From the sequence record NC_055721.1: a stretch of 64,000 nt of DNA; one strand, written 5' to 3'. This DNA comes from Escherichia phage EcS1. The notes beneath the pieces are model-generated. The model was not told the origin of the DNA. It searched no databases and worked only from the letters and a program-made list of their open reading frames with translations. Positions 34,157 to 42,512 of the stretch are shown here, piece after piece (the stretch's first letter is position 1; every line of letters starts with the position of its first letter). The position numbers and the translations under genes were made by a program.

Positions 34157-36418
34157 TCAAAGTTTACAAGAAGAGCAATCTTCTTCTTTTGGAACTTCGA
34201 TTTCATAATCATCAGTACCAGAACCATCACGAGTATTATGATAGTAAGCTGTCTTACCACCGAAGTACCACAGATGAAGCATATCATCCATCATGACTGA
34301 CATCGGAACCTTACCTTTAGGGTAGTTCTGTGGGTCATAGTACATGTTAGTAGAAATAGACTGACATACGAATTTCTGCATAATTGCTACTTGATTCAAG
34401 TAACCTTTATTACCAGATTTCGCTAACTTCCAAGCATAATCATAAAGATCAACATTAGTATCAACATTAGGCACAACTTGGTTAAAGGAACCTTCTTTCG
34501 ATTCTTTAACACTTACAGGCCCACGTGGCGGCTCGATACCATTAGTGCTATTTGATACCTGGCTCGAAGATTCACAAGGCATGAGCGCGGATAAGGTACT
34601 GTTACGGATACCGTAACTTCTGAGGTCTTCCCGCAACTGTTCCCAGTCACAAACGTACGATGGGGCTGCGAGTTGGTCAATCTTTTTATTGTACCAGTCG
34701 ATAGGTAACTCGCCTCTAGACCAACGAGTGTCTGAATAATACTCGCAATGGCCTTTTTCTTTCGCTAATTTGACTGATGCTCTGATGAGTGCATATTGAA
34801 GTCTTTCCATCATTTCGTGAGTTAAATCGTTTGCATCATTATATGATGCAAAGTTATCAGCTAACCAAGCAGCATAGTTCGTGATACCAACACCGAGTGC
34901 ACGACGTTTTTTAGCTTTCAAAGCTTCCGGGACAGGATAACCTTGATAGTCTAATAAATTATCTAAAGCACGAACTTGTACTTCGGCTAATTCGTTAATT
35001 TCGTCTTGGTTCTGCCAATCGAAGTTACCGAGTACATAAGCAGATAAAGTGCAAAGTGCGATTTCTGGGTCTTCACCACCAACGTCTTTAGTAGGAAGCG
35101 CGATTTCACAGCACAAGTTTGATTGCTTAACCGTAGCCACATCACGAATAAAAGGACCATACTCACCGACGTTATCTACAAAGTAAGGGTAAATACGAGC
35201 CGTACCTGAACGTTCAGTAAAGAACAATTCGAAGAGCTCGCGAGCTTTAATTCGTTTCTTACGAACCGTAGGATCTTTTTCTAAAGCTTCATAGAAATTA
35301 CGGAACTTCAGAGGGTCAGCAAAATACGCTTCGTAAAGTTCGCCTTTCATGATGTCAGGACTGAACAACGTGATGTAATCATTTTTAACCAAACGTTCAA
35401 ACATCAGGTCATTAATCTGAACACCATAGTCTAGATGACGAATACGGTTTTCATCTACACCTTTGTTGTTCTTCAGAACTAACAGGTTTTCCACTTCAAG
35501 ATGCCATATCGGATAATACAACGTTGCTGCACCACCACGTACGCCACCTTGTGAACAACTCTTCACTGCGGTTTGGAAATGTTTCCAGAATGGAATCACC
35601 CCAGTATGTTTGACTTCACCATGACCAATCTTAGAACCTTCAGCACGAATCATACCACCATTAATACCAATACCAGCACGTTTACTGATATAACGAATAA
35701 TAGCTTCTGCACCTTTGTTAATTGATGTCAGTGAATCACCACTTTCAATAACAACACAAGAACTAAACTGACGAGTTGGAGTACGAACACCTGCCATAAT
35801 AGGAGTAGGCAACGAAACCTTACGAGTTGAAACAGCATCATAAAAACGAACTACGTTCTTAATACGATGTTCACCATCATCTTGGTGCAAACACATACCG
35901 ATAAGCATGAATGCAAATTGAGGCGTTTCATAAATCTTGCCAGTTGAACGATCTTTGACTAGGTATTTTTCGATTAACTGCATCGTACCAGCATAAGTGA
36001 ATTCAAAGTCACGGTCGTGTTTGATTTGAGATTCAAACAACTGGATTTCTTCTGCAGACCATTTGCTTAGGATTTCGGTGTCATAAAGACCTGCGTTAAC
36101 TACTGAAGAGATGTGGTCGATAAACCGAGGTGGTTCGAATTGATTGAAAACATCTTTACGAAGACCAAACATAGCTAGATTACTTGCTACATATTGATAA
36201 TCTGGTTCGTCAACTGTAATACGGTTAGCAGCAACTTTAATAACTGCTTTATGAATTTCTTTAGTGGTCATTCCATCACGCAGATGACTTTTAACTTCTT
36301 CATAAAGGTCATAAGGGTTAACGGCTATAGATGTACTTGCGCACGACCATTCAAGGACTTGGATGATTTTACTTGGTGTAAAATCTTGACTAACGCCTGA
36401 ACTTTTTATTACTTGCAT
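34157..36418 (-). CDS. nrdA: Ribonucleotide reductase large subunit (class Ia)
   Basis: Start at MQVIKSSGVSQ (T4 NrdA starts MQLINVIKSSG); active-site NLCCEI; ~753 aa. Confidence 0.9.
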   Translation of the reverse strand: MQVIKSSGVSQDFTPSKIIQVLEWSCASTSIAVNPYDLYEEVKSHLRDGMTTKEIHKAVIKVAANRITVDEPDYQYVASNLAMFGLRKDVFNQFEPPRFIDHISSVVNAGLYDTEILSKWSAEEIQLFESQIKHDRDFEFTYAGTMQLIEKYLVKDRSTGKIYETPQFAFMLIGMCLHQDDGEHRIKNVVRFYDAVSTRKVSLPTPIMAGVRTPTRQFSSCVVIESGDSLTSINKGAEAIIRYISKRAGIGINGGMIRAEGSKIGHGEVKHTGVIPFWKHFQTAVKSCSQGGVRGGAATLYYPIWHLEVENLLVLKNNKGVDENRIRHLDYGVQINDLMFERLVKNDYITLFSPDIMKGELYEAYFADPLKFRNFYEALEKDPTVRKKRIKARELFELFFTERSGTARIYPYFVDNVGEYGPFIRDVATVKQSNLCCEIALPTKDVGGEDPEIALCTLSAYVLGNFDWQNQDEINELAEVQVRALDNLLDYQGYPVPEALKAKKRRALGVGITNYAAWLADNFASYNDANDLTHEMMERLQYALIRASVKLAKEKGHCEYYSDTRWSRGELPIDWYNKKIDQLAAPSYVCDWEQLREDLRSYGIRNSTLSALMPCESSSQVSNSTNGIEPPRGPVSVKESKEGSFNQVVPNVDTNVDLYDYAWKLAKSGNKGYLNQVAIMQKFVCQSISTNMYYDPQNYPKGKVPMSVMMDDMLHLWYFGGKTAYYHNTRDGSGTDDYEIEVPKEEDCSSCKL

Positions 36419-36437
36419 TTTTGTCCCATATTGTGAA

Positions 36438-36445
36438 TATAAATA
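36438..36445 (+). promoter_or_regulatory. Late promoter box TATAAATA upstream of GIY-YIG endonuclease gene
   Basis: Exact box 26 nt upstream of ATG 36471, followed by GAGGAG RBS. Confidence 0.5.
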
Positions 36446-36470
36446 CCAAAATATAGAGGAGTTACCCCAC

Positions 36471-37229
36471 ATGAAATCAGGCATTTATAGAATAATTAAC
36501 ATTAATAATAACAAATCTTACGTTGGCAGCACTATAGACTTCCAAGCAAGATGGAAACGACATTTTTCGGATTTGAAGAACGGGTGTCATTCTTCAATCA
36601 AACTCCAACGTTCATACGATAAACATGGTAAAGATTCATTCGTTTGTGAAATAGTTGAGCAGACTCCATATGATGAATCTATAATTTCATTAGAAGATTA
36701 TTATATCATCTATTTTGATTCAAAACAAAACGGATATAATATTGCTAACGCAGCATTTGGCGACACTTTATCGCACCACCCTAACAAAGAAGAAATATTT
36801 AAGAAAATAAGCATTTCTCTTAGAGAAAACAATGAAAAACTTTCTGAAGAAGAAAGGAAAAATAAATTTGGAAGTAAAAGTTGTAAGAAAGGTAAAAGCT
36901 ACGAAGAATTTTACGGAGCTAAAAAGGCTCAAGAAATAGGTCTTAAACTTTCAGAAAGCAATTATAATAGACAAATGTCTGGAACTAATAATCCATTCTT
37001 TGGTAAGACACATAGTGACGAAGTTAGAAAGAGAATTTCTGCCACACAGAAAGGACGTAAGAAACCTCATGTTAAATTAAGTATAGAAGGAACTATTTAT
37101 CAATCAGTGGCAGAAGCAATGAAAGCCACAAATCTTTCTCGTAAAGTTATAGAAAGACGTTGTGGCTCTGAATTATTCATAGATTGGTTTAGACTTCATA
37201 TAGCCATTTTACCTTTAATTGGAGGGTGA
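36471..37229 (+). CDS. Free-standing GIY-YIG homing endonuclease (I-TevI/Seg-like)
   Basis: N-terminal GIYRIININNNKSYVGST...RWKRH GIY-YIG module; repeated basic NUMOD-like linker (GKTHSDEVRKRIS); opposite strand to flanking td and nrdA; 3' end overlaps td 3' end. Confidence 0.85.
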   Translation: MKSGIYRIININNNKSYVGSTIDFQARWKRHFSDLKNGCHSSIKLQRSYDKHGKDSFVCEIVEQTPYDESIISLEDYYIIYFDSKQNGYNIANAAFGDTLSHHPNKEEIFKKISISLRENNEKLSEEERKNKFGSKSCKKGKSYEEFYGAKKAQEIGLKLSESNYNRQMSGTNNPFFGKTHSDEVRKRISATQKGRKKPHVKLSIEGTIYQSVAEAMKATNLSRKVIERRCGSELFIDWFRLHIAILPLIGG

Positions 37230-38059
37230 CTTTCATAATTTTTCAAAACAAAGTCTTCATGCATTGTCATTTCAGTTACCCAAGTCAATTGAGCATGAGT
37301 TGTAGACACGTCAAAGTTAGAAGGTAGACCTTTGATTTCTAACTGACACAGCTCTTTAGGTTCACGTCGTAGAATTTCTTTACACTGTTCTACATGGTTC
37401 AAATAGATGTGTGTATTGCCGCCTGAGAACACTAAGTCACCTGGAATAAGATTACACATCTTCGCTACGATATGCACAAGAGCGGCGTATGACGCAATAT
37501 TAAATGGCAATCCTAAGAACACGTCAACACTTCGTTGATACCATTGCAAGTCTAGGTGGCCTTCACGCACGTTGAACTGATAGAACATATGACAAGGTGG
37601 AAGAGCCATCTTATCAATTTCAGCTGGGTTCCATGCTGAAACAATTTGACGACGATCATTAGGCATAGCCTTGATACGCTCAATTGTTTTAATTACCTGG
37701 TCGACGCCACCGAAATCTCGCCATTGCTTCCCATAAACAGGACCAAGTTCGCCACCAGAATAGCCAAGGTCTTTTGCTTGGTTTTCATAGTTATCGTCCC
37801 AAATAGTGTTACCGTCAAGATAAGAACCATGTGTACGGAATCGAAGGTCATTGACATTTGTAGAACCAGACAAGAACCACAGAAGCTCAGAGATACAGGC
37901 TTTCCATGCTAATTTCTTAGTCGTTACAGCTGGAAAACCTTTAGTCAGGTCCCAGCGTAGTTTAGTACCGAACAATGCTATCGTACCAGTTCCAGTACGA
38001 TCATCAGTTTCATAACCATTAGTCAAAATGTGTTGAATCAGATGTTGATATTGCTTCAT
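37196..38059 (-). CDS. td: Thymidylate synthase, uninterrupted
   Basis: 287 aa (T4 Td 286); conserved active-site region LPPCHMFYQF; no intron. Confidence 0.9.
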   Translation of the reverse strand: MKQYQHLIQHILTNGYETDDRTGTGTIALFGTKLRWDLTKGFPAVTTKKLAWKACISELLWFLSGSTNVNDLRFRTHGSYLDGNTIWDDNYENQAKDLGYSGGELGPVYGKQWRDFGGVDQVIKTIERIKAMPNDRRQIVSAWNPAEIDKMALPPCHMFYQFNVREGHLDLQWYQRSVDVFLGLPFNIASYAALVHIVAKMCNLIPGDLVFSGGNTHIYLNHVEQCKEILRREPKELCQLEIKGLPSNFDVSTTHAQLTWVTEMTMHEDFVLKNYESHPPIKGKMAI

Positions 38060-38469
38060 TAATAATTCTCTTGTAAAGGATAAAAGAGGATTTCACGTCC
38101 ATTCTTTTCGAATCGACCAATCATGATAACAGAATCAGAAGTATACTCTATATTTCCTAAAGCAGAGGCCTTTACAAGTTGTCCGTAATGAGGACAAACT
38201 TTCATACGTCCTTGGTCGAATACACCTGGACCACCTGCATAACAATAGAAATAGTCAGAACCACCACGAATAGCTTCTACGGCTACTTCTATTTTGTAGA
38301 TTCCATGTTCAAAAATATCAGCGGCATATCGTTGTGGGTCTTTTTTATATTCAGCAATTGTTGGTGCTGAAATCAAAGGACATAATGGCCAGTTCTTTTG
38401 TTCTTCACGTTTAAGTAATGTTAGGAGCATAATGTTCTTCCAGTGGATTGATATAAACTTCTGAGCCAA
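38059..38469 (-). CDS. Hypothetical protein, tandem paralog of 38411-38758 (frd.x-like); start uncertain
   Basis: C-terminal 80 aa align with upstream paralog (HGIYKIEV...IGRFEKNGREILFYPLQENY vs HGIYRVEI...TGRFYKIGSEVYINPLEEHY). Confidence 0.45.
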   Translation of the reverse strand: MAQKFISIHWKNIMLLTLLKREEQKNWPLCPLISAPTIAEYKKDPQRYAADIFEHGIYKIEVAVEAIRGGSDYFYCYAGGPGVFDQGRMKVCPHYGQLVKASALGNIEYTSDSVIMIGRFEKNGREILFYPLQENY

Positions 38470-38758
38470 TTTTGTAGAATCGACCAGTGATAACCATCAC
38501 AGGACCATTCTCTGAATCATTATAAGTCACATTACCTGCAGCATGACCTAAGAACCATGTTTTAGTAGAAGTGCCGATATAAACAGGCTCATTGCCTTTA
38601 TTGTTATACATGCAGCAGTCTTTAGACCATTGGTACAATTCATTGACTGGAATTTCTACACGATAGATTCCATGCTCGTGACGCCAATTCTTCCAGACTT
38701 TTTGTTTCTTGTCTGCTTCAAGAAGAGTTAAGTTATACCCCAGTTTTGACATATACAT
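38411..38758 (-). CDS. Hypothetical protein, tandem paralog (frd.x-like)
   Basis: See above. Confidence 0.45.
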   Translation of the reverse strand: MYMSKLGYNLTLLEADKKQKVWKNWRHEHGIYRVEIPVNELYQWSKDCCMYNNKGNEPVYIGTSTKTWFLGHAAGNVTYNDSENGPVMVITGRFYKIGSEVYINPLEEHYAPNIT

Positions 38759-39341
38759 CCTCGCTGATATTTGTTACTGCATCAATATGATAATAGTGAG
38801 ATTCTTTAAACAAGAAACCAGAGTCTTCGCGCGCTGGAGCAACAATAAAGCTCATTGGCAATTGAGTGTCAGAGTTCACCCTGTGACGTTTACGGATAGA
38901 GGTTTGTATTACCTTATCTGAGAATGGATAAGCTTGCTGAAGTAGTCCTGCACCACCTATCACTGAATATACACCTTCTTCACGACTAAAGATAGCATTG
39001 AAATCAGCATTAGGGCTAGAAACTTGAAGTTCATGACCGTTCAGGAATTTATCGAATTGATAGTCACTTATATAAAAGTGAGCCAATGAGCCATCTTGAG
39101 TTGTAGGATAGTCACGAGACAAATCGCAAACAACTACATGAGGGCGTCCTACTAGTGGCTTAGGGAAACTAGAAAACGTCTTAGCTCCCATAATTAAAGT
39201 AGTGCCTTCAGTACGAGCTTTAAAGTTTTTAAGGTCTTGAGGAATATGGCCCCATGGTAACCCACCATTTATTCCAAATGCAAATTCATTTTCGCCTGAA
39301 ACAGTTTTAGTCCCAGCATAAGCATAAATTAATTGAATCAT
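38733..39341 (-). CDS. frd: Dihydrofolate reductase
   Basis: DHFR signature GINGGLPW; start at MIQLIYAYA; position upstream of td. Confidence 0.85.
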   Translation of the reverse strand: MIQLIYAYAGTKTVSGENEFAFGINGGLPWGHIPQDLKNFKARTEGTTLIMGAKTFSSFPKPLVGRPHVVVCDLSRDYPTTQDGSLAHFYISDYQFDKFLNGHELQVSSPNADFNAIFSREEGVYSVIGGAGLLQQAYPFSDKVIQTSIRKRHRVNSDTQLPMSFIVAPAREDSGFLFKESHYYHIDAVTNISEDVYVKTGV

Positions 39342-39574
39342 TGATTTTCCCACCATTCAATAGCTTTTTTAACATCACAAAAATAATCAGAATTAATGCA
39401 ACCACCGAATTCATCGTATAGGCACACTTCAATGAAACTAAGGCGTAAATGACAATCTGATTCATGCATAGCTTGTTCTGCATGCATCTCAAAAATAGAT
39501 AAATCTGATGATGTGAATGCACAATGGAGAAGATAATTATGGTCTTCGCCTTTGTATGAAATTGTTGTAATCAT
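39338..39574 (-). CDS. Hypothetical small protein
   Basis: 78-aa ORF. Confidence 0.35.
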   Translation of the reverse strand: MITTISYKGEDHNYLLHCAFTSSDLSIFEMHAEQAMHESDCHLRLSFIEVCLYDEFGGCINSDYFCDVKKAIEWWENQ

Positions 39575-39774
39575 CGACGTACCTCTTCAGCCATTTCTTC
39601 GAGAGCAGGGATTAGTTTGCGGGAGAATTCAATATTAGGGCCGCGGCCTATACGAGAAAAGAAGCCTGAAGTCATTTCTTTATGAGCCTGACGCATTGCA
39701 TCGCGTACCAATAAGACTCCTTCAGCACGAGCATCTTTAAGCAGTTTATCAAGTTCTTCTTTACTAATTTCCAT
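39571..39774 (-). CDS. Hypothetical small protein
   Basis: 67-aa ORF. Confidence 0.35.
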   Translation of the reverse strand: MEISKEELDKLLKDARAEGVLLVRDAMRQAHKEMTSGFFSRIGRGPNIEFSRKLIPALEEMAEEVRR

Positions 39775-39868
39775 AGCCTTGCCTCATTCCACATTGAATA
39801 CACTTGCCACCAGCGAACATAAGTCCACACCCACAATACTTACATTCCCAATCAGTCAGAATTCTCAT
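39764..39868 (-). CDS. Candidate zinc-ribbon mini-protein (34 aa; CxxC-x10-CxxC), not in ORF track
   Basis: Manually translated MRILTDWECKYCGCGLMFAGGKCIQCGMRQGYGN; ATGA overlap with upstream stop and 11-nt overlap with downstream start. Confidence 0.3.
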   Translation of the reverse strand: MRILTDWECKYCGCGLMFAGGKCIQCGMRQGYGN

Positions 39869-40143
39869 TTTGTTTTCTTAGCAATTTTCCAGGCAGCTTT
39901 GAAAGCTTCGACTTCTTCAATTTCAATCCAAAAACCAGAACCAAAGCCATCGTCATAACAAGGACAGCCGTCGCAATAGTCTTCCCAAGTAAGATCACGA
40001 CCGCCAAGAGAAGAACCAGTTTCCATTGCACGCAGACGAATTTCAGCAGCTTCAATAGCTTCAGGGTCGTTACCTTCAATAGTGAAGTACCATTTTCCAC
40101 GATATTCATTACCTAAGTTGATTGAGTTACGTTTAAGTTTCAT
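39865..40143 (-). CDS. Hypothetical small protein
   Basis: Start at ATG 40143 with GGAG RBS downstream of promoter 40170-40198. Confidence 0.4.
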   Translation of the reverse strand: MKLKRNSINLGNEYRGKWYFTIEGNDPEAIEAAEIRLRAMETGSSLGGRDLTWEDYCDGCPCYDDGFGSGFWIEIEEVEAFKAAWKIAKKTK

Positions 40144-40169
40144 TTTATTCTCCTTGTTGGTGTAGAAGC

Positions 40170-40198
40170 ATAATACCATACCTCTACACCGTTGTACA
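40170..40198 (-). promoter_or_regulatory. Early-type promoter (-10 TATTAT, -35-like TGTACA) flanked by inverted repeat GGTGTAG/CTACACC
   Basis: Cassette nearly identical over ~45 bp to the one at 58003-58042. Confidence 0.45.
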
Positions 40199-40537
40199 CT
40201 ACTTATTGAAAGTCTTTTTGATCAATGCAATCATTTCTTCTGCATTGCCTTCGTAGACAGTCAAAGTTATCGACTCATCTTTTATTTTTTCAAAGTATTT
40301 GAATTCACCTTGTGCTAGTTCAAAGTAAGGGACAAAACCACCTGAACCTGCAACTTGCCCATTGGCAAACTCGATTTCATCTACATAAAGGTCATAATCA
40401 CATTTACTAACATTTCGAACAGTGAACCAACCACCATTCTTATCGATCAAACGAACCATTTCATTGTTACAATGAGCATTTTCCATGAAAGCTGAGGTGC
40501 ACTCTTCTTTCAAGCGATATTTTTTATCAACTTGCAT
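40199..40537 (-). CDS. Hypothetical protein
   Basis: 112-aa ORF. Confidence 0.4.
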   Translation of the reverse strand: MQVDKKYRLKEECTSAFMENAHCNNEMVRLIDKNGGWFTVRNVSKCDYDLYVDEIEFANGQVAGSGGFVPYFELAQGEFKYFEKIKDESITLTVYEGNAEEMIALIKKTFNK

Positions 40538-40539
40538 TT

Positions 40540-40770
40540 TTATTCACCTGATTCAACAATTGTATCAAAAAGTTCTTCAATCATTTCTGGGTACATGCCA
40601 ACACAGTACTCACGGTTTAGATAAAGATTGATAGTACGACGGTCACCTTCAATAGTGATTTCCATACTGTAACCATTAGTAACACATTCAACTTCTTTAA
40701 GATTGTACTTATCAAGACAAGTCTCTTTGAAATAAGCATAATCGTAGATATCAATAGTTACTTTAGCCAT
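40540..40770 (-). CDS. Hypothetical small protein
   Basis: 76-aa ORF with GAGGAAAAC RBS; early promoter upstream. Confidence 0.4.
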   Translation of the reverse strand: MAKVTIDIYDYAYFKETCLDKYNLKEVECVTNGYSMEITIEGDRRTINLYLNREYCVGMYPEMIEELFDTIVESGE

Positions 40771-40829: not shown

Positions 40830-40842
40830 CAGATACAAAAAT

Positions 40843-40860
40843 GGGAGACCGAAGTCTCCC
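40843..40860 (-). terminator. UUCG-tetraloop terminator after gene 32 (GGGAGAC-UUCG-GUCUCCC then AUUUUUGU)
   Basis: 34-bp sequence identical to the element at 23002-23035. Confidence 0.7.
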
Positions 40861-40867
40861 ATCATTA

Positions 40868-41773
40868 TTACATACCTGCTAACAGAGCATCTAAGTCGTC
40901 TTCATCAGCACCACTTGGTGTGGTATCACGAGATTGGACATTAGTACGAGCTGTATCAGTAAAGTCTTTCATATCTTGGTCGAAGGCATCAAGTGAATCA
41001 CCGATTGCATCAGCCTGAGCAGAAGCTTTAGCGGCAGCACCACCAAGTGCAGCGATACCAAATACTTGTTCAAATTTCTTCTGGTTTACATCCAGAGTTT
41101 TGAACTTATCTTTAGAAGTCAGTTCGCTCAAATCAGACATATTGTCATTGAGGAATGTCTGGAACGTTTCGTCGTTGATATTAGGGATTTCAGATTGACC
41201 TAAGAATTTAGAGTCATCATAGTTCTTGAAATCACCGACTTTCTTAGTTTTCAGTACGAAGTTCGCACCATCGAAAGGACATGTCACATCGACTGGAGTT
41301 TCACCGATAGAGGTATCAACTTCAACCATTGCTGTGATTTTGTCGTATACTTTCTGACCAAAACGGAACTTGAATACTTTACCTTCTGTTTCTGGGTTAG
41401 CTTTATCTTGAACAACCAAGATGTTAGCCCAGTATGAAGTCTTACGCTTCAGGAGTTGGTATTCAGGCTTATTCGTATTGTACGAATCATTTTTAGACAG
41501 ATATTGGCAAACTGGACAGTTATCAAAGTCACCATGAGTAGAAGTACAGTTTTCGATGTACCATTTACCATTTTTCTTGAAACCGTGATTCACCAGCTTA
41601 GCAAACGGAAGACCTTCATCACCTTTACCTGGAAGGAAACGAATAACAGCCATGCCATTACCGTTGTCGTCTTTCAATTTCCATTCATTCTTATCGTCAG
41701 AAGAGAAACCTTGACCACCTTTCAGAGAAGCCAGTTGTGCTTGAAGAGCTGCAGGATCTTTACGCTTGAACAT
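40868..41773 (-). CDS. 32: Single-stranded DNA-binding protein gp32
   Basis: 301 aa as T4 gp32; near-colinear ([45 protein letters not shown]). Confidence 0.9.
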
Positions 41774-41858: not shown

Positions 41859-42512
41859 TCAGATTTTGCAACTCTTGATAGTTTGTATAAAGAGCGTTTT
41901 AGCTTCCAAGGGATTAATATTCAAAATCTTCTTGTAAGCTTTCAATTTAATCGAATAATTCGACCAAACTAAATCAGTAGACAGTTCGTCATGTTTATCT
42001 ATTATATCCAAAAAAGAATCAAGCAAAATAAACGTTTCAAAACTGATAACGTTTGATTGGAGAAGCTTGAAGATATAACTCGAGCTGACGTTCTTATTAT
42101 ACACAAATAATTCGTTAAGCGAATTGGTTTCAACTTTCTGAGCGAAGTAATACATGTTCTTAATATCATCTTCGAACACGGTTTTAACTCGTTTCAGTTT
42201 ACCAATATATTCACGATAAAATACTAACGCGTCAGCATCACTGATGTCGCCAATCCATGCATCTTGGTTAGCAACCAAGTTACTCATGAATATTAATGTT
42301 AGTTCTTTAAGAGTGTATTTGTCAGCTAGTTTTTCAAAGAAATACTTGTCACGACGTTTGTTATAGGCTGCGTCAGAAATTCGCATGGTCCAATTATACT
42401 TTATAACGTCGTAACGACCATTAAAGTGCTGTTTGAGCATCAAATACAACATATAAACTGATTTACCATTTATATGTCGTGTATTATTAGGAGGCATGCG
42501 AATTTGAATCAT
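41859..42512 (-). CDS. 59: Helicase loader gp59
   Basis: 217 aa as T4 gp59; strong match (GKSVY.LYLM.KQH.NG.YDVIKYNW, ANQDAWIGDISDADALVFYREYIG). Confidence 0.9.
   Translation of the reverse strand: MIQIRMPPNNTRHINGKSVYMLYLMLKQHFNGRYDVIKYNWTMRISDAAYNKRRDKYFFEKLADKYTLKELTLIFMSNLVANQDAWIGDISDADALVFYREYIGKLKRVKTVFEDDIKNMYYFAQKVETNSLNELFVYNKNVSSSYIFKLLQSNVISFETFILLDSFLDIIDKHDELSTDLVWSNYSIKLKAYKKILNINPLEAKTLFIQTIKSCKI

Follow-up and report, generated by a model that had tools for sequence, protein, structure and literature searches.

The S and L genes between frd and td of Escherichia phage EcS1: anciently diverged paralogues of a small phage protein family with a predicted OB-like fold

Gene content of the frd-td locus

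Escherichia phage EcS1, a member of the genus Kagamiyamavirus (Tevenvirinae), carries two small genes, here termed S (short type) and L (long type), between frd and td. The window analysed comprises 64,000 nucleotides of the EcS1 genome (NC_055721.1), to which all EcS1 coordinates refer. The four genes are encoded on the minus strand in the order frd, S, L and td. The upstream neighbour of S, frd (38733-39356; Pfam DHFR_1, E 4e-21), codes for a dihydrofolate reductase (DHFR), while td (37196-38059; Pfam Thymidylat_synt, E 5e-97), the downstream neighbour of L, codes for a thymidylate synthase (TS). With both flanking genes supported by Pfam, the position between frd and td assigned to the two ORFs in the original prediction is upheld, and S and L together fill positions 38059-38758 exactly.

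S (38411-38752/38758, minus strand) lies directly after frd and codes for a protein of 113-115 amino acids. Its start codon is likely the ATG at 38752 (MSKLGY...), rather than that at 38758, as judged from the sequence context; a GAGG Shine-Dalgarno sequence lies 6 nt before the former ATG and the orthologous proteins begin with MSKLGY. L (38059-38430, minus strand) codes for 123 amino acids from the ATG at 38430, which is the likely start and agrees with that of the NCBI protein, while translation is unlikely to begin at the TTG at 38469 given in the ORF list. The 123-amino-acid protein is identical over its full length (100% identity, 100% coverage) to KNT65_gp191, a hypothetical protein of Escherichia phage EcS1. 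The frd and S frames overlap by 20 nt when counted from the ATG at 38752 (20-26 nt across both candidate starts), S and L overlap by a further 20 nt, with the start of L lying within the end of S, and the stop codon of L shares one base with the start codon of td (TAATG). In a consensus scan of the frd-td interval, neither promoter-like nor terminator-like sites were seen on the coding strand.

Further upstream on the minus strand are gene 59 (41859-42512), gene 32 (40868-41773), frd.3 (40540-40770), frd.2 (40199-40537) and frd.1 (39865-40179; DUF5417), while two small overlapping ORFs of 78 amino acids (39338-39574) and 67 amino acids (39571-39774), also on the minus strand, are found directly upstream of frd. 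Neither of these ORFs has a match in a Pfam scan, and in related phages the spot upstream of frd is occupied by assorted small hypothetical genes. A strong terminator-like hairpin with a 10-bp stem (40840-40863, minus strand; GGGAGACTTCGGTCTCCC, followed by a T-run) is located just downstream of gene 32 and upstream of the frd.3-frd-td block.

On the other side of the locus, a free-standing GIY-YIG homing endonuclease of 252 amino acids (36471-37229, plus strand), with Pfam matches to GIY-YIG, NUMOD3 and the I-TevI DNA-binding domain, is encoded antisense between td and nrdA (34157-36484, minus strand), and its 3'-terminal 34 nt overlap with those of td. The site between nrdA and td is likewise occupied by a homing endonuclease in phiR1-RT, by the same gene split into two ORFs in Gravdalen and by an unrelated small ORF in CBH8. 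The longest nrdA ORF begins at 36484, and an internal methionine (MQVIKSSGVSQDF...) looks, by similarity to T4 NrdA, like the true N-terminus. If nrdA begins at this methionine, the 22 codons at 36418-36484 (minus strand) are probably an untranslated leader, and a short divergent intergenic region would be left facing the homing endonuclease gene.

Paralogy, family membership and distribution of S and L

S and L are real protein-coding genes of EcS1 and represent paralogues of ancient divergence within a single small family, and it is virtually certain that they are truly paralogous. The two proteins share 27% identity over 106 columns in a BLASTP comparison (E 1e-8), and their Smith-Waterman score of 83 compares with 26.3 +/- 4.4 (maximum 58) for 1000 shuffles of L (z = 12.8). 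In the family alignment, 31 of the 96 aligned positions are identical. The similarity is thus significant, and the paralogy proposed in the original prediction is confirmed both by these statistics and by a common PHROG profile. The motifs on which that prediction was based are present in both proteins, as HGIYRVEIPVNE and GRFYKIGSEVYINPLEEHY in S and as HGIYKIEVAVEA and GRFEKNGREILFYPLQENY in L. The similarity had been assigned to a conserved C-terminal domain of ~80 amino acids, which understates it; homology extends over the whole length, since the shared stretch includes an N-terminal strand motif, LTLLE..QK.W, common to S and L. The main difference between the two is an L-specific insert of ~21 amino acids forming two helices (PTIAEYKKDPQRY), which follows the N-terminal strand.

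Both genes show low ratios of non-synonymous to synonymous substitution when compared with their Winklervirus orthologues in Erwinia phage Gravdalen and Serratia phage CBH8 (82-83% amino acid identity, dS ~0.8-1.0). The dN/dS values of S (0.09-0.10) and L (0.13-0.14) compare with 0.09 for td and 0.24-0.26 for frd, so that S and L are constrained as strongly as td. It is vanishingly improbable that the similarity of the two proteins reflects chance or low complexity, or that the ORFs are unexpressed. Such a reading is favoured by nothing but the low pairwise identity (27%), while chance similarity is ruled out by the alignment statistics and runs counter to the assignment of S and L to the same PHROG. 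The low dN/dS in the called frames and the conservation of the genes in more than 600 phage records argue against non-coding ORFs, and the confident fold predicted with AF2 (see below) argues against both. The ORFs on the plus strand were also considered as possible genes, and were rejected as they are short and dN/dS favours the minus-strand frames.

PHROG 1928, annotated as 'unknown function', is the family to which S and L belong; the matches are near full-length and the members occupy the same genomic position. Residues 8-110 of S align with profile positions 3-123 of 126 (E 7e-25), and residues 12-135 of the 136-amino-acid L ORF with positions 2-122 of 126 (E 6e-34). Members of this family include RB32 ORF229c, S16 gp154 and gp155, phiR1-RT Gp236, PG7 gp188 and gp189, and PEi20 ORF-252 and ORF-253. 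S and L therefore add two members to an already catalogued but uncharacterised family, the homologues of which are all named 'hypothetical' in their sources and carry no Pfam domain. In an alignment of 68 sequences, W14, Y45, G105 and K109 (L numbering) are invariant, while G43, F107 and G111 each deviate in one of the 68; EcS1 S and L each carry all seven residues.

The spacing between the conserved Trp and Gly is bimodal across these 68 sequences, with 7-10 residues in the S type and 26-45 in the L type. The sole intermediate spacing (19) is found in P0051, a protein of 206 amino acids with an extra C-terminal tail of ~100 amino acids that lacks annotation. In a neighbour-joining tree, most of the S sequences form one clade nested among the L sequences. 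The two ORFs had been interpreted as the product of a local duplication within a nucleotide-metabolism operon. A duplication indeed took place, but it was not local to EcS1; the S and L subtypes recur across several genera, so that the duplication predates these genera and a recent event within EcS1 is ruled out.

When 1.84 billion representative proteins were searched with a profile, 53 representatives were retrieved at E <= 0.001, nearly all of 95-148 amino acids, among which P0052 and P0053 look spurious. In this search and in two large protein searches, only short hypothetical phage proteins were found, bacterial homologues and informative fusions being absent, and in the searches performed here the family was seen solely in Straboviridae phages and unclassified metagenome contigs. 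Using tblastn, 119 phage records were found to contain L-like sequences and 612 to contain S-like ones, the matches listed all being T4-like phages of enterobacteria and their relatives. A search for related loci based on an L-only alignment gave 14 loci, most of them in phages already represented here.

Besides the genus of EcS1, at least seven Tevenvirinae genera contain S and L subtypes in the frd-td interval, with the Marfa-like phages counted in. A pair is present in Winklervirus (Gravdalen and CBH8), Karamvirus (PG7), Kanagawavirus (PEi20), Gelderlandvirus (S16) and Moonvirus (Moon), as well as in Roskildevirus (Cronus), where the order is reversed. Single copies of the L type are found in Tegunavirus phiR1-RT and in Marfa, and of the S type in Jiaodavirus Kpn6N and Tequatrovirus RB32. 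Two-copy enterobacterial phages always contain one S and one L. Copy number at the frd-td site ranges from none, in T4, to three. In T4, no match to the family HMM was found among the ORFs of a 10-kb region (138000-148000), and the frd and td genes themselves overlap. One metagenome contig (L032, 2541-3602) has three copies in tandem between frd and td, in the order L, S, S, while another (L031, 601-1432) contains two copies of the L type.

The single copy of RB32 (L012, 2474-2890) is annotated as 'flanked by 9 bp repeat'. In an alignment of the RB32 frd end and td start with the T4 frd/td junction, the repeat, TAAATGAAA, is present at both borders of the gene and the T4 junction is fused exactly at it. 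The two phages therefore differ by a clean loss or gain of the gene where stop and start codons meet.

A family member is located directly after frd in nearly every locus examined. Among the divergent representatives with contig context, eight of nine follow frd immediately or follow a paralogue in that position. This position is kept even where the neighbouring frd product shares only 28-50% identity with that of EcS1 (28-33% in some contigs), and is also seen in Providencia phage PSTRCR_127 (Gualtarvirus), outside the Tevenvirinae. Where extra unrelated small ORFs are present, they separate the family member from td, and the member stays adjacent to frd. The only member found away from frd is P0024 (contig L034, 3001-3420), which is preceded by a PnuC-like NMN transporter gene and faint matches to DksA/TraR zinc fingers, with the contig ending right after it. 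In contig L010 (2905-7138), in which the family member is P0051, td is split by a GIY-YIG/I-TevI-like gene in a manner resembling the T4 td intron, and nrdA is seemingly interrupted by a DUF7487 ORF.

Predicted fold and pairing

A model of L was built with AF2 from a 16-sequence alignment, with a mean pLDDT of 91 and a pTM of 0.83. As assigned with DSSP, the modelled L protein comprises an N-terminal strand (2-8), the two helices of the L-specific insert (25-30 and 32-38), strands at 43-50, 54-56, 61-64 and 75-78, a helix at 82-90 and strands at 94-96, 100-110 and 113-118. The elements follow the order b1-b2-b3-helix-b4-b5, which is that of the OB fold, with the N-terminal strand in addition. 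S, as modelled in a fusion with L, shows the same order of strands and helices without the insert. On the basis of these models, S and L are each probably a compact, OB-like five-stranded barrel.

Foldseek searches of the PDB with the modelled structure returned mostly OB folds, including OBody, RPA14/32, Stn1-Ten1 and domain I of RuvA. Superposition on solved OB folds gave scores of Z <= 4.4 and TM ~0.3-0.4, and L is read here as a predicted OB-like barrel without a close solved relative. In the BFVD viral structure library, the matches were all to uncharacterised members of the family. No match was found in a profile search of PDB sequences (E up to 10), an NCBIfam scan of S, L and 16 family members gave nothing meaningful, and a Pfam search with 16 family members (E up to 10) gave only three scattered chance hits. 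In particular, the Pfam and PDB profile searches gave no match to the SSB, RPA or tRNA-anticodon-binding families, again at E up to 10. The Pfam scan of S and L also revealed no nuclease motifs (GIY-YIG, HNH or LAGLIDADG), which the scan is able to detect, as the neighbouring ORF at 36471-37229 matches GIY-YIG. The possibility that the two genes are remnants of a homing endonuclease was rejected on these grounds.

Known OB-fold heterodimers such as RPA32/RPA14 and Stn1/Ten1, and homo-oligomers of small OB proteins such as PriB, SSB and YgiW, bear no detectable sequence relationship to S and L and give marginal structural scores. S and L differ from them in the extra N-terminal strand with its invariant Trp and, in L, in the two-helix insert. 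Dimerisation of RPA32/14 is mediated by a C-terminal helix; S and L have no C-terminal helix of this kind.

Pairing of S with L was modelled as a single chain of 266 residues, S-(GGGGS)6-L, from 15 paired rows, each containing the S and L proteins of one phage. Both halves keep their fold, and the 30-residue linker is disordered (pLDDT 33-38). The pTM is 0.71, a single value for a tethered construct in which tethering can bias the packing. A back-of-envelope calculation for 266 residues gives an expected pTM of ~0.46 for independent domains and ~0.76 for rigidly docked ones, so that the value obtained suggests, indirectly, a defined arrangement of S and L. A pairing of the two proteins also fits the genomic data, since each two-copy enterobacterial phage carries one gene of each type. 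By these lines of evidence, the chances that S and L form a heterodimer are roughly even.

Possible roles of the S and L proteins

Literature searches yielded no characterisation of the family beyond an HHpred result and a toxicity screen for phiR1-RT. The single L-type orthologue of this phage, Gp236, had 'no significant hits' in HHpred (PMC6893735 supplement). In the E. coli toxicity screen, where the cut-off was set at 0.4, g236 reached a relative CFU of 0.401, and the four proteins confirmed as toxic did not include it (PMC6893735).

The best explanation for the observations above begins with expression. S and L are probably translated from the frd-td mRNA in a coupled fashion, as suggested by the overlap of the four frames from frd to td and the lack of promoter and terminator consensus sites between them, and their amounts would thus be tied to those of DHFR and TS. 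The two proteins would then probably form a heterodimer, in the manner of many OB-fold pairs, and the pair would probably represent a small, non-catalytic binding or adaptor module which serves the enzymes of thymidylate synthesis. Such a module might hold DHFR and TS together, or might tie both to another partner, for example single-stranded nucleic acid. It would be accessory and dispensable, rather than essential, since T4 lacks the gene. Taken as a whole, with the mechanism included, this explanation is tentative and falls somewhat short of an even chance, while a functional link of S and L to DHFR and TS, considered by itself, is possible but doubtful. The link is suggested by the persistent place after frd, the overlapping frames and selection equal to that on td. 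However, the gene order of T4-like phages is strongly conserved by descent, so that adjacency to frd is weak evidence of a shared function, and both the different neighbourhood of P0024 and the tolerance of the frd-td interval for gene gain and loss count against it.

The T4 dNTP synthetase complex is a multienzyme complex which includes Frd, Td, NrdAB and others and is reported to interact with gp32. S and L lie in the same gene block as components of this system (gp32, frd.3-frd.1, frd, td and nrdA) and are linked to frd and td by the overlaps, but they contain no enzyme motif and T4 has neither gene. As the complex was characterised in T4, S and L cannot be a required part of it. The suggestion in the original prediction that the two proteins are accessory factors of dNTP synthesis is accordingly favoured by the adjacency to frd, the overlapping frames and the strong purifying selection, and disfavoured by the absence of the gene from T4.

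S and L may instead represent a single-stranded nucleic-acid-binding OB-fold protein or pair which acts independently of DHFR and TS. Its targets would be intermediates of DNA replication or recombination, or else mRNA, for instance the frd-td message, the translation of which it might regulate. The structural neighbours are nearly all OB folds that bind ssDNA or RNA (SSB, PriB, RPA, Teb1, Stn1/Ten1 and the anticodon-binding domains of tRNA synthetases), and genes 32 and 59 are 2 kb away from the gene cluster. The b4-b5 hairpin region of OB folds borders the usual ligand face, and the most conserved motif of the family, GRFxKxG, would place Arg, Phe and Lys on this hairpin in the models. Most members are mildly basic, although several, including EcS1 L (pI 6.1), are acidic or neutral, and a net charge of this order (pI mostly 6-9.6) is atypical of avid nucleic-acid binders. 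The low structural scores and the lack of sequence matches to the SSB, RPA and anticodon-binding families even at permissive thresholds also argue against a role in nucleic-acid binding, and OB folds bind proteins and sugars as well. This alternative is considered unlikely.

The variable presence of the genes raises a different prospect, namely that S and L serve as accessory genes in host interaction or counter-defence, with a place after frd that is an inherited, insertion-tolerant spot unrelated to nucleotide metabolism. T4 has no copy, RB32 one and other phages up to three; the gene was cleanly gained or lost at the 9-bp repeat distinguishing RB32 from T4, unrelated small ORFs share the frd-td interval, homing endonucleases are found nearby and P0024 occurs in another context. 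The narrow range of the family, seen here only in Straboviridae and unclassified metagenome contigs with 53 representatives among 1.84 billion proteins, is also consistent with such a role. Conversely, no PADLOC model was matched, the sole hit being at chance level (JetA, E 0.072, in one of 16 members), and the orthologue g236 is not clearly toxic to E. coli (PMC6893735). The genes are under selection as strong as that on td and are kept after frd across very divergent phages, whereas the other small ORFs of the interval come and go. A host-interaction or counter-defence function is accordingly a minority reading and judged rather unlikely.

The most specific form of the DHFR/TS-linked explanation is that the S-L pair, as an OB-fold heterodimer produced in concert with DHFR and TS, represents a new non-catalytic subunit of phage thymidylate synthesis, which would bridge DHFR and TS or tether both to gp32-coated ssDNA at the replication fork. 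Although this form is improbable, a bridging function, if true, would parallel, without covalent linkage, the fused DHFR-TS enzyme found in protozoa, and bridging or tethering would explain the retention of the gene directly after frd across the Straboviridae. If S and L bind such partners, the RB32-like phages that carry the gene and T4, which lacks it at the 9-bp-repeat junction, would provide a natural test system. The analysis replaces the reading of a recent local duplication and provides a family found in the sequences of over 600 T4-like phages with a predicted OB-like fold, two subtypes and a likely heterodimeric state. Should S and L bind DHFR, TS or ssDNA, an organising subunit would be added to the long-debated dNTP-synthesising complex of these phages.
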